64,000 nt of DNA from Eledone cirrhosa. Its lineage: Eukaryota. Below the pieces are notes generated by a model, which was not told where the DNA came from, did no database searches, and saw only the letters and a program-made list of their open reading frames with translations. Both the position numbers and the translations under genes were made by a program. How positions within the stretch are numbered: the stretch's first letter is position 1; each line of letters opens with the position of its first letter. The stretch is taken from positions 291,896,001-291,960,000 of the forward strand of contig OZ024741.1 in NCBI GenBank assembly GCA_964016885.1, in the 5' to 3' direction. Of this stretch, positions 2,571-60,984 are shown piece by piece.

Positions 2571-3017
2571 ATTAAGATGACAGATAGAAATTCTTGAATC
2601 ATTTAAACTTTACAATTGTTCCGACACAATGTTTTTCTTTAAACACACAACTAGGGAAAATGTAATCCATAATAATAATAGTAGTAATGACAATAAGGTA
2701 CTTATAGCAATGCAATCAAAAGGATTACTATTCATAATTTACGCTAGTTTGTGTTTAAATATATTTGTAGCTCCATAGAAGATTAAACCTCGATTCTTTT
2801 ACACCGGTGATAATCTTCTAAAGAAAAACAAACATATTTAAACACAAACTAGCGTAAAGTACAAATATTATTCCTCTTGATTGAATTATAATAATTTTTA
2901 TATTGTCATTATTATTATTTTTATGGATTATATTTTGCCTAGTTGTGCGTTTAAAGAAAAACTTTGTGTCAAACTATTGTAAAGCTTAAATGATTTAAGA
3001 ACTTGTGTCATCTTAAT
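2571..3017. repeat. Old imperfect palindrome (~210-bp arms), probable fold-back PLE pseudo-LTR
   Basis: attaagatgaca (2571) vs tgtcatcttaat (3017) with reverse-complement similarity throughout; left arm has a decayed HHR 3' half on - strand (tgtc GGAAC AATT GTA, 2611-2626). Confidence 0.8.
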
Positions 3018-3170
3018 TTATTTTATATGTTCTGTGTAAAATGTACCCCTATTGTTTGACTCTTTAAATTCTCCTTACTGTATTTCGATCCGCATGTGCA
3101 TAAACACACTGAGGTTGAATTTTCTCACTCACAATTTCCCTTCAAATAAATATAAGTGTATGTTTTTTCT

Positions 3171-3418
3171 TATATATTAATAAAAAAATATATAGGAAAG
3201 GTTATATATGACGTGTATAAACCTACATATTCATGTGTGTGTTTATATATATATATTTGATACAATCATATAGCTACTTCCTACTTATGATATATATCCA
3301 GTAGTAGGAAGTAGCTATATGATTGTATAAAATATATATATATATAAACACACACATGAATATGTAGGTTTATACACGTTATATATAACCTTTCCTATAT
3401 ATTTTTCATTAATATATA
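3171..3418. repeat. Near-perfect palindrome, ~115-bp arms, 17-nt spacer, at the point where the gypsy RT is cut off
   Basis: 3171-3285 is the reverse complement of 3303-3418 with few mismatches; TA-rich ends; no recognisable HHR. Confidence 0.9.
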
Positions 3419-3420
3419 GC

Positions 3421-4466
3421 AGTAAACAAAATCCAGGTCTCTGGTGATTTCGTCCATGAAGCGTTGAAAGGTACTAGCGGCGTTGTGTAGACCAAAGGGC
3501 ATCGTTAGGAACTCAAAAGCACCAAATGGTGTGGTGATAGCAGTGGCATCTGATGACACGCTCTGACTAAATCCAGTTTAGAAAAAACTGTTCATCCATG
3601 TAAGGAAGAAGCAAATCCTGAATGTGTGGGATCAGGTAGCGATCGGGTACAGTCATCGTGTTTAATCGGCAAAAGTCCCCAGTCGGACGCCAATCGCCGG
3701 AACGCTTTGGAACCAAATGCAAAGGAGAGTCCCACGGACTGGAGGAAGGGCGTATGATCCCCAGCTGTAGCATGTGCTTAAATTCAGCCTTAGCCGCTTT
3801 CAATTTCTCCGCAGAGAGGCGGCGAAGGCGTGAAAATACAGGAGAGCAAGAAGTTTCGATATAATGTTTTATGGAGTGAGTAGGCTTGCTCACCACAAAA
3901 TTCAAATTTGTCAATTCTGGGAAGGAATTTAGAAGCGACTAGAAAGGGTCCTAGGAAGCGGCGACAAAGAATACCGGGCTGATAGATGAGACAGTAGATC
4001 TTAAACCCGGAAAGGAGAGTTCCGTATTAGCATCCAACAACCGGCGTCTGCGCATATTCAGTACGAGGTTATAGTGGTGCAGGTAATCCGAGCCTAGAAT
4101 AGGGTAAGGCAAATCAGCGACCGTGAAAATCCACGCGAAGTCTCTTCGCAATTCCAGGTTCAAAGAACGAGAAATTTGACCATACGTGGAGATAGGAGAA
4201 TGATTTACGGCTTGCAGAGAAATAGATGAAACTGGCGGCTTCTCTTTGAGAAGTTTTAGCGGCCATATGCTGCAAGCAGCGCCTGTATCCACCAGACATC
4301 GAGCTTGGGAAAACGTGTCAGTTATGAAGAACGAACGATTATTTGGGAGTGTCAGAGGAGACTGTGCCGTGCTCAGGTCTCCTGAAATTCGTTTCCCTGG
4401 TTGGAAAAGGAACATGGCTGTATACAACAGCGTGCCGCCGCGCCAAAACGGCTGTGATAGTAGCAC
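3421..4466 (-). pseudogene. gypsy pol remnant: aspartic protease + RT N-terminal half
   Basis: CLVDTGAACSIWP and PILGSDYL (protease); [29 protein letters not shown] and TPFGAFEFLTMPFGLHNAASTFQRFMDEI (RT). Confidence 0.92.
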
Positions 4467-57560: not shown

Positions 57561-57829
57561 TAGCAATAGATATATAGATATTATCTTCAGTTGATTTCAC
57601 GTGGACATCATTAGAAATGACCAGCAATAGCTGTGGCACAACAGCCACGATTCAACGAGTTGGCAGCCATGATCAAACGATAAGGAGAGCCTCCCCAAAA
57701 CAAACTACATATACAACACATTTCCTGCGAAACAAAGATGCCAGAGATTTTTGTTTTTCTAGTTTCTTTCTAACTATTTTTTTTTTTTTTCAGTGGTTAT
57801 TGGAAAACGTTTAGCGTATGATGGGATAT

Positions 57830-59760
57830 GGCGAGTGGGTGATGAGAGAGATAGAGGGGGAGGAGGTAGAGATGAAGATAGAGAAGAAGGAGCAGAGATG
57901 TGGAGAGAAGAGTAGACAGAGAGAGAGAGAGAGAGAGAGAGAGAGAGAGAGAGAGAGAGAGAGAGAGAGAGAGAGAGAGAGAGAGAGAGAGAGAGAACGA
58001 GAGAGAGAGAGAGAGATAGAGAGAGAGAGAGAGAGAGAGAGAGAGAGAGAGAGAGAGAGATGGGGATAGAGAGTAAGAGGCAAATGTATGCAGAGAGAGG
58101 AAAGAGCAGCCGTGTGAAGATAGAGGGAGAGAGATGTGGAGCAAGAAAGGCGCAGAAGTGACGAGCGAGAGGGAGAGAGAGATGTGGATAGAGTGGGAGG
58201 AGAAGATGAGCAGGGAGAGAGAGGGAGAGAAATAGGGGGTAGAGGCAGAGAGTGAGGAAGAGAGAGGAGAGAGGCGAGAGTGAGTGAGGAGAGAGAGAGT
58301 GAGAAGGTAGTGGTAGAAAGCAAAGGATGGGAGGAGTAGAAAAAGTGAGAGTGTGAGAAGAGGTATAGAAGAGAGAGAGAGAGTGTGTGTGTGTTTAATG
58401 AATGTAGGAGGAGAGAGGGGGGGGGTACGAATGGAGGAGTAAAAGGGAAAGGCAGATAGATGGATGAGAGGAGAAGTAGAAGGGAGGGAGAACTAGGAAG
58501 AGTGTTTAAACGTTTAGACAATGGGGAAAGGATGATGAGATAAAGAGAGGAGGGAAGTGACGGGGGGTGGAGATATATAGAATGAAAGAGTGAGAAGGGG
58601 GAGAGAGAGGGAGAGAGAGTTGGGAGAAAGGTGTGAGAAGTGGGAAGAGGTTGAAACGGAAAAACTGTTGAAATGGATCAATAATTTAATAGTATTAACC
58701 TTTCTGATGTATGGATGGACGGATATTTTGATTTACATATGCCACAGATACACACACACACACACACACACACACACACACACACACACACACACACACA
58801 CACACACACATACATACACACATATACACACGCACACACACACACATACACGCACACTCATATATACACATATACACACACAGACACAGACACGCACACA
58901 CACACACACACTCACATATACACATATACACACGCACACACACACACACACAGACACGCACACTCATATATACACATATACACACACAGACACAGACACG
59001 CACACACACACACACACACTCACATACACACGCACACACACACGCACACACACACACACTCACATACACACATATACACACGCACACACACACACACATA
59101 CACGCACACTCATATATACATATATACACATATACACACACATACACAGACGCGCACACACACACTCACATACACACATATACACACGCACACACATACA
59201 CACATACACGCACACTCATATATACACATATACACACACAGAGACAGACACGCACACACACTCACATACACACATATTCACAGACATACACGCACACTCA
59301 TATATACACATATACACACACAGACACAGACACGCTAACATACACAAAACAGACACGAACATTCACACACACACAGACACAGACACGCACACACACACAG
59401 ACACATACTCACACATGTATATATGTATTTGCTTATATATATGTGCACAAATATACATGTATACACACACACACACACACATGTACGTACACACACACAC
59501 ACAAACACACACATATATATATATTTGCTAACATATATGTACAAAAATATATGTATACAGAGGCAAATAAACACACACAGAGACACACTCGCACGCACAC
59601 GCATACACATACATACACATGTATATGTATATTTGCATACATATATACATATATACAGACACATGGACACACACACATACACACACACATACACACACAC
59701 GCACACACATATATATATATGTATATGTATATGTATATATGTATATATATAGCTATGACT
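57830..59760. repeat. (GA)n purine-rich tract followed by compound (CA)/(TA) field
   Basis: Direct reading. Confidence 0.9.
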
Positions 59761-60594
59761 GTCAATTGCCTTGACTTGAACGCTACCAAATATACACCAA
59801 ACCAATGCTATTCACGAACTCACGCAAAGGCAATCTATAAATCTATCAACCCCACTCCCAGACACATACCACACAAGAGTAAAATAAATACAAATCACGC
59901 CCCTCAAAACTATACAAAACCACTCCTAGCATAACAAATACCAATTACTGGGGGCGACGGACGTTTACAGGCTGCAGCCGTTGTACTACGGTGGTAATTT
60001 AAAGATTTAGCTGCTCTTTAGAAAATGTCAAGTGACTACCTAGAGGCTCACCCATTGTTATAGTTGCTGTCAATATTGTTATAGTACAGCGATTGTTCAC
60101 ACACACACACACACACACACACACACACACACACACACACACACACACACACACACACACACACACACACACACACACACACACACACACACACACACAC
60201 CGGTACACTTACATATGTAATATGTAATCATATATGAATATGATGCAAAACTGATTCTTTGTTGCCATTTATTATTATTAATGGCAGTATCGGTAGAGGG
60301 TTGGACGCCATGCTTTCCAGCATAGAGTTACGTCCCTTTATGATCTGAGTTCAAATCCCGCCGAGGTTAACAACTTTGCCTTTCATCCTTATGGGGTCGA
60401 TAAAATAAAGTACCAGTAATGCACTGGGTAATTATTGGCCTTGTGCCTAAAGTAGAAACAATTATTATTATTGATATTCTGCTCCGCAAGAACATCAAGT
60501 ACTCATTTTGGCAACCGCCAGTGAATGCAATTCATTTGCACCTCTACTGCCAATATATATATATATATATATATATATATATATATATATATAT

Positions 60595-60984
60595 TCAATG
60601 AGTATGTCAAAGAATGAGTTTTACAGTAGATTGGAAGCACTCTACGTTAAAAATATTTTTCCAGAGTCATTAATATTAAAATATAAATATTAATAAAATA
60701 GATGTTCTTTTGATCAATTACATTTTATTATACATATTTCAGATGTACAACAGTACGTCCTCATCAGACAAAATATAGTGATATATGACATACCCTGAGA
60801 TGTTAAATGGTTAAGATTTAATCATTACCTTGATTAAATCTTAACCGTTTAACATCTCAGGGTATGTCATGTATCATTATATTTTGTCTGATGAAGACGT
60901 ACTGTTGTACATCCGAAATATGTATAATAAAATGTAATTGATCAAAAGAACATCTATTTTATTAATATTTATATTTTAATATTA
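60595..60984. mobile_element. Fold-back insertion (palindrome 60671-60984, 154-bp arms, 6-nt loop) with two HHRs and a 76-nt tail on the left arm
   Basis: HHRs at 60722-60774(-) and 60881-60933(+): ATTTTGT CTGATGA (G/A)GACGTAC tgtt GTACATC(T/C) GAAA T ATGT A TA^ATAAAAT. Confidence 0.92.

Follow-up and report, generated by a model that had tools for sequence, protein, structure and literature searches.

What produces the palindromes that recur along a 64,000-nucleotide stretch of contig OZ024741.1 (positions 291896001–291960000 of a 3.0-Gb assembly; hereafter the window, meaning the whole stretch analysed)? A sequence-only reading had named 13 places at which this DNA folds back on itself and had proposed that the hairpins, which resemble miniature inverted-repeat transposable elements (MITEs), are extremely 5'-truncated insertions of Penelope-like elements (PLEs) in which both strands of a cut TA array primed cDNA on the 3' end of the element. 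Self-comparison of the DNA and reading of the arms recovered inverted repeats at all 13 places, and most of the palindromes are head-to-head ends of PLEs. The palindromes are genuine, their architecture is real and, as had rightly been marked, already known, and the elements are ordinary PLEs; the observation behind the proposal is partly confirmed. The layout in which one arm stops at (TA)n and the other runs on is present at 2571, 10259, 20717, 22127, 22324, 23568, 33392, 42203, 50421 and 60595, as well as at 53387 (a tandem unit of ~425 nt), but not at 22705, which has two short ends, or at 3171, which is a fold-back. The palindromes had been called mostly unrelated in sequence, but those at 22127, 22324 and 33392 belong to one family. 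Wherever a hammerhead or hammerhead-like motif is visible, the left one lies on the minus strand and the right one on the plus strand, as described. The short arm ends 35–60 nt past the predicted cut, as had been claimed, at 10259, 23568, 42203, 50421 and 60595, but the distance is about 13–26 nt at 22127, 22324, 33392 and 22705 and about 210 nt at 53387; the additional length of the other arm (the tail), put at 60–100 nt, actually spans 34 to about 155 nt.

That these hairpins derive from PLEs is hardly in doubt. The largest palindrome (family F42, 42205–47994) contains an open reading frame (ORF) of 892 aa (43918–46596, plus strand), preceded by an inverted short-ended arm (42205–43811, minus strand; hammerhead cut after 42259; ending in (TA)20) that is 99.9–100% identical to the right arm. 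The ORF is followed by the 3' region or pseudo-long terminal repeat (pLTR; 46597–47994, plus strand; hammerhead 47786–47840, short end ~47891, long end 47994), the last 58 nt of which are repeated ahead of the ORF (43812–43869). Reverse transcriptase (RT) motifs (LDIASYY, ITMGS and YRDD) were read by eye in this ORF, and its C-terminus carries a GIY-YIG domain (Pfam E=6e-4, below the Pfam cut-off), which gives F42 the single-ORF organisation of EN+ PLEs; Pfam returned no match for the whole protein and none for an RT. Neighbours of the protein in the Atlas (0.95–0.98) bear GIY-YIG/HTH_animal, and the Cys motif ahead of the GIY-YIG fits the description of Neptune/Nematis in the available part of PMC8557442. 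Other PLE features recur across the sampled DNA, with pLTRs formed by a partial tandem and an inverted 5' copy in the window and at L132, L145, L148 and L241, an optional tail between two discrete 3' ends in 12 families, and a hammerhead within the pLTR that is variant or partial in F22, F227 and F235. ORFs related to that of F42 (28–59% identity) are common in the sampled DNA. Extension of the arms, suggested as a check by the sequence-only reading, joined them to PLE ORFs: in five families besides F42 they continue into RT/GIY-YIG ORFs, the 3' ends of PLE ORFs run into F22 (block C6), F227 and a 75% relative of F235, and the F60 and F50 pLTRs sit before or after PLE ORFs (in F60, the ORF follows the pLTR at L025).

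Hammerheads are widespread among these ends, with 82 matches to a type I descriptor in 864 kb compared with 4–6 in each of three shuffles. In the window, full predicted folds lie at 42259/47835, 50555/50803, 60729 and 53604, the three F22 copies (22127, 22324, 33392) retain only the 3' half (GAAA, stem III and cut site), the motif at 10259 is decayed but present in its relatives, and variant cores occur at 22705 and 23568 (CAGAAGA, CCGAAGA). Neither the descriptor nor reading revealed a hammerhead at 2571, 3171 or 20717. An Rfam scan included no hammerhead family among the best 150 of 402 rows, and gave sub-threshold microRNA (miRNA) matches on the 50421 and 60595 hairpins. Variant cores with position 4 changed or U3-A8 are conserved across copies (23304–23349 and 24682–24720 in the window; F22 in block C6).

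We sampled eight 100-kb blocks at round coordinates outside the window (800 kb) and counted merged palindromes with arms of at least 30 nt and gaps of at most 300 nt. This gave 107 palindromes, comprising 46 of PLE-type families or bearing a hammerhead, 20 of satellite or low-complexity sequence and 41 unassigned. The library behind the PLE assignments contains F20 as well as three families recognised solely from their layout and hammerhead. The density put forward earlier, one hairpin per 5–6 kb, does not hold outside the window, where PLE hairpins occur once per 17 kb and would not exceed one per 9 kb even if all 87 non-satellite palindromes were counted. The anticipated TA flanks and orientation bias were both borne out: TA was found on one side of 40/46 PLE hairpins against 9% of 2334 control placements (scored over a span of 20 nt that begins 8 nt inside the arm), and all 16 hammerhead-bearing palindromes of the sample point outward. 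Neighbouring arms of 11 families were arranged head-to-head in 66 cases, tail-to-tail in 11 and in tandem in 6, these counts being lower bounds because pairs of equal spacing were collapsed, and the first 100 F50 matches on C1 gave 26 head-to-head cases to 0.

The two arms of a pair nearly always end differently. Long and short ends were combined in 60 of the 66 unselected head-to-head pairs, with 5 short+short and 1 long+long, where independent choice of ends predicts 33 mixed pairs (P about 1e-12). F42, a young family with at least 1118 candidates, behaves similarly: 41 loci, counted after removal of L135 because it duplicates L134, gave 34 long+short pairs, 1 long+long pair, 3 cases with an end of another kind and 3 solo arms. 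Where imperfect targets make the flanks of F42 pairs readable (L124, L127, L138 and L154), a 14-nt target duplication surrounds the pair; with element 3' ends on both sides, such a duplication suggests 3' overhangs that each primed synthesis. The centres vary between copies and the ends are unequal. Microhomology of at least 2 nt (2–4 nt) was present at 11/13 insert-free joints compared with 15% in simulations, and locally templated inserts occupy the centres of L123 and L132; microhomology or templated inserts are what microhomology-mediated end joining is expected to leave. Taken with the ORF links, the variable centres and the duplications uphold the central proposal that these are PLE ends, not DNA-transposon terminal inverted repeats (TIRs), and that cDNA was primed from both target strands, which we regard as very probable.

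The claim that the smallest hairpins are extreme 5' truncations fared less well, as these are mostly not random truncations: 5' ends accumulate at a single initiator-like base (+1). Arm lengths cluster at 37–75 nt in F22 (59/63), 34–56 nt in F32976 (33/39) and 162–165 nt in F50 (9/23), coinciding with initiator-like bases that in F60 and F32976 follow a TATA box about 30 nt upstream, and 17/30 F50 loci break at +1. In the F50 mini-hairpin of the window (50421–50843; long arm left, short right; hammerhead cuts 50555 on the minus and 50803 on the plus strand) both arms begin at +1 (50678 on the minus and 50680 on the plus strand) with a single G between them, and in the F60 mini-hairpin (60595–60984; long arm left; hammerhead cuts 60729 on the minus strand and 60926, with one change in the core, on the plus strand) the short right arm starts from +1 (60824). 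Among 6046 genomic copies of the F50 34-mer that starts at +1, 2293 extend upstream with TTTC, and in 1174 the C of the element is replaced by G; copying of a cap usually leaves a non-templated G behind. In the tandem copies L241 and L025 the ORF starts downstream of the long end, which would place both RT start sites in the leader of the mRNA; cDNA primed from them would run out at the cap, and this is probably how the fixed ends arose. In F42 the start site was not located. The F22 start sites placed in this way would fall inside the ribozyme, so that the F22 mRNA would miss half of it. Hammerhead-cleaved RNA was considered as the template and set aside, because 5' ends do not pile up sharply at the cut site in F50 or F32976. 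Separately, block C13:20.047 Mb (the L105 region) and L244 contain the F50 +1 sequence as reiterated 17-nt units, every one of which opens with an extra G; these look like repeated re-copying of the template 5' end by telomerase-like slippage.

These patterns suggest a mechanism in which the PLE protein would make cuts about 14 nt apart in the two strands of a (TA)n target, and the cut ends would both prime cDNA on the same RNA, one 3' overhang at a distal and the other at a proximal RT start site, the tail corresponding to the RNA between the sites. The distal cDNA would displace or follow the proximal one, and host microhomology-mediated end joining would link both cDNA 3' ends. With priming at the sites of the mRNA's 5' pLTR, the two cDNAs would reach the capped end after 60–260 nt, run off it and yield a mini-hairpin that resembles a MITE and often has an extra G; with priming at the 3' pLTR sites, the arms could extend into the ORF. 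We put the probability of the whole mechanism, from a staggered cut and double priming on a single RNA to cap run-off and joining by microhomology, at roughly 70%.

Whether the two arms were copied from one RNA molecule is the least secure step, and we favour a single molecule by a modest margin. Among the 26 F50 pairs from the first 100 C1 matches, 16 had both arms continuing upstream of +1 and 10 had both arms stopping there, with no mixed pair against 12.3 expected, and for the 17 F50 arms that break at +1, no partner extending upstream of that base lay within 1.5 kb. Ten private variants in F42 are common to both arms of an insertion, compared with 0.017 expected by chance. A scheme in which the two strands prime on two RNAs held in an asymmetric dimer, one subunit favouring the distal and the other the proximal site, would account for long+short pairing and for independent 5' ends without strand displacement, and the PLE protein is predicted to be dimeric (PMC11167929). 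Such a scheme would also suit eight arm-discordant sites and the region L040:1355–1710, an apparent head-to-head pair of two different PLE families with a 2-nt microhomology joint; L040 aside, 141 joints within the 14-family library are of the same family and none is mixed. However, to yield no mixed F50 pairs, the two RNAs would each have to be primed at the same copy of the pLTR, and the ten private variants shared within insertions speak against it as well, leaving two RNAs an improbable, though the most viable, alternative to a single template.

Fold-back and self-priming of one strand, which the available text of PMC3846280 proposes for an antisense template, would give short palindromes with central microhomology and the near-perfect hairpin joints at L128 and L176. 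A copy made in this way must nest within the tail-bearing arm, yet the arm reaching further 5' was the short one in 17/34 F42 pairs and the long one in 16, with one tie. Since a fold-back copy can neither outreach its template nor gain a tail that the template lacks, the pairs with the longer short arm, half of those in F42, exclude it, and in addition both outer ends are fixed family ends within a 14-nt duplication. As a general explanation self-priming is thus very unlikely, although it may still account for a few pairs and for 3171. DNA-transposon MITEs with TIRs and a TA target would be palindromic, TA-flanked and present in thousands of copies, as these hairpins are, and could make up part of the 41 unassigned palindromes, but the equal, fixed TIRs and constant interior of such elements are not what is seen; RT/GIY-YIG ORFs and hammerheads refute this origin for the ORF-linked families, and overall we give it negligible weight. 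Fold-back artefacts of assembly or library are equally remote: some arms are 99–100% alike (42203, 50421), no independent contig bridges the window's own joints and reads aligned to 60600–60984 bridged none, but the unequal ends, unique spacers, arm identities down to 76%, target duplications and short-read contigs of run X1 (possibly the assembly's own sample) with other F50 joints at the same +1 (in the 15 rows listed of 34) all contradict them.

Several points weigh against two-strand priming on one RNA with run-off at the cap. The F42 loci were chosen for having a long arm, although an end-neutral query returned 18 long and 12 short among 30 arms, showing that a long partner was available to F42 pairs. 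Most of the 34 flanks examined are pure TA, in which a duplication is unreadable, and the 13 joints scored are what remained of 38 after 10 without an anchor, 1 duplicate and 14 with inserts or nearby mismatches. In vitro, the RT start site does not differ between strands (PMC11167929), so that the long+short rule is not predicted by that system. The position of +1 is itself derived from the motif and the end pile-up, the F22 arm lengths were measured on one reference that possibly belongs to another subfamily upstream, and the G excess is clear in F50 only, where G makes up 31% of the copies lacking TTTC, a set in which upstream variants and microhomology joints are also counted; the base at −1 in F60 is T in 7, G in 3, A in 1 and C in 1, and F22 is ambiguous. 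The eight arm-discordant sites stand against eight concordant shared polymorphisms, several of them in a homopolymer or hairpin context, arm-to-arm conversion or two RNAs of one donor can also give shared private variants, and L040 looks like a two-family pair. Finally, no ORF link was found for 2571, 10259 or 20717.

L1 twin priming also uses both target strands as primers on one RNA and joins the products by microhomology. The second L1 primer copies an upstream, non-overlapping part, and no palindrome therefore arises, whereas both arms here copy the same region. Among EN+ PLEs (Drosophila virilis Penelope, Adineta vaga Pen2/Pen3 and Naiads), the available sections of PMC3846280 and PMC8557442 describe inverted, 5'-truncated 5' copies, tails that are often confined to one end and a preference for (TA)n; with PMC2377424 they give A. 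vaga target duplications of 8–10 bp, 'optional' tails of 30–40 nt and a promoter inside the Penelope pLTR (the last in PMC2377424). As far as these sections go, the elements studied here share the head-to-head layout, partial tandems, a putative pLTR promoter, TA targets and target duplications, but differ in their tails of 34–155 nt, a 14-nt duplication in F42, near-obligate long+short pairing and the initiator-like 5' pile-up. The Anolis Poseidon element PAc cuts and extends both strands in vitro, with two RT start sites bounding the tail (PMC11167929). It resembles the elements here in its AT-rich target and its two internal start sites downstream of the hammerhead, and needs no ribozyme cleavage; unlike PAc, whose strands share start sites, the two strands behind a genomic pair here would each prime at a site of their own, and these sites would lie in the inferred 5' untranslated region, whereas those of PAc are inside the ORF. 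Minimal hammerheads of metazoan PLEs, as covered in the accessible part of PMC4209133, include Schistosoma pairs 100–700 bp apart on opposite strands; the type I motif, short palindromic stem III and U3-A8 variant recur here, and cores with position 4 changed (CAGAAGA, CCGAAGA) would be further, putative ribozymes unlike those in that part of the source.

Near-obligate long+short pairing, 14-nt duplications, 5' reach by either arm and a single-base 5' stop are new relative to the literature found. Our search returned no paper with a pairing count, concordance or cap run-off, and older Penelope papers and supplements (PMC11167929 Fig. S2; genomic tail ends) may hold parts of what concerns pairing, duplications and arm reach. 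The origin of tandem and inverted PLE insertions and of tails is called undefined in the portion of PMC8557442 available, and later integration steps were left open by the in vitro system (PMC11167929). The counts presented here constrain this mechanism, with predictions for the spacing of the nicks, for a separate start site on each strand, for a single template behind both arms and for run-off at the cap, and they set apart, as a class, short hairpins whose 5' end is defined; such PLE hairpins are liable to be annotated as MITEs or miRNA precursors. As a source of double-stranded RNA (dsRNA) for ADAR they are plausible. The accessible text of PMC5625713 describes lizard Penelope as heavily edited, and octopus as having an exceptional wealth of near-perfect dsRNA that carries no repeat annotation. 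We saw no imprint of editing in retrotransposed F42 copies (A>G 4 vs T>C 9 in arm overlaps, 11 vs 8 outside). A wider scheme can be offered only tentatively, with odds slightly short of even: a dimer would nick (TA)n 14 nt apart, two RT sites would prime at fixed positions on one RNA, 5'-pLTR priming would give 'strong-stop' cDNA pairs ligated as MITE-like hairpins, thousands per family, and PLEs would account for about half of this genome's short-spaced palindromes other than satellites and, should the host be a coleoid, as its octopod-like repeats may indicate, for much of the unusual dsRNA load that underlies hyper-editing.

The remaining palindromes of the window follow the same layout with few exceptions. 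The three F22 mini-hairpins are short left and long right at 22124–22286 (hammerhead 3' half only) and 22325–22498, and long left and short right at 33394–33586. Short left and long right arms also form the F10 mini-hairpin (10259–10437), whose joint falls within the decayed hammerhead (cut after 10297 on the minus strand), and the F20 hairpin (20717–21060; 34-nt tail). In the F227 pair (22705–23375) both arms are short and carry a variant hammerhead core (22724–22769 on the minus and 23304–23349 on the plus strand), and the F235 pair (23415–24763) has a long left arm with a tail of about 155 nt, a short right arm and a degenerate hammerhead-like motif (23611–23649 on the minus and 24682–24720 on the plus strand). 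At 53387–54692, the ~425-nt tandem unit forms a head-to-head pair, short left and long right, with hammerheads at 53604–53634 (minus), 53966–53996 (plus) and 54390–54420 (plus). Its short tandem structure, type I hammerhead and absence of an ORF are those of non-LTR retrozymes, described as short, ORF-less tandem hammerhead units and proposed PLE derivatives in the available part of 10.64898/2026.07.22.740005. A ~630-nt unit at 49369–50060 (60-nt terminal direct repeat, hammerhead at 49629 on the minus strand, 9 matches in 800 kb) is likewise retrozyme-like and fits that description, and the tandem unit at 53387 differs from retrozymes as described there in being arranged head-to-head with long and short ends, as in autonomous PLEs. 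The palindrome at 2560–3296 belongs to an old family with arms 76% alike, short at TA on the left and long on the right, whose PLE status is inferred from layout alone. Relatives of this element align across 2811–3296, which identifies 3171–3418 as an inverted duplication of its far end and not a pair of family ends; no family was found for 3171 as a free-standing element. It lies beside a repeat family (3413–4975) with gag/protease-like frames on the minus strand and a fixed end at 3413, resembling a long terminal repeat retrotransposon.

A second PLE type occupies 13176–14500, with a degenerate GIY-YIG ORF end and a hammerhead-like motif near its 3' end, followed by TA. Related hammerhead-bearing ends at 61600–61728 (plus) and 62881–62973 (minus) face inward 1.2 kb apart and are 80% alike; they are probably separate insertions. 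A long inverted repeat of non-PLE origin is formed by the 3' ends of two long interspersed nuclear elements (RT, zf-RVT) at 8000–9277 (plus) and 11156–12424 (minus), which are 92% identical and lie tail-to-tail 1.9 kb apart. The window also holds a 58-nt minisatellite in 8 copies (35759–36227) and many copies of a very common dispersed repeat resembling a short interspersed nuclear element (16305–19990).

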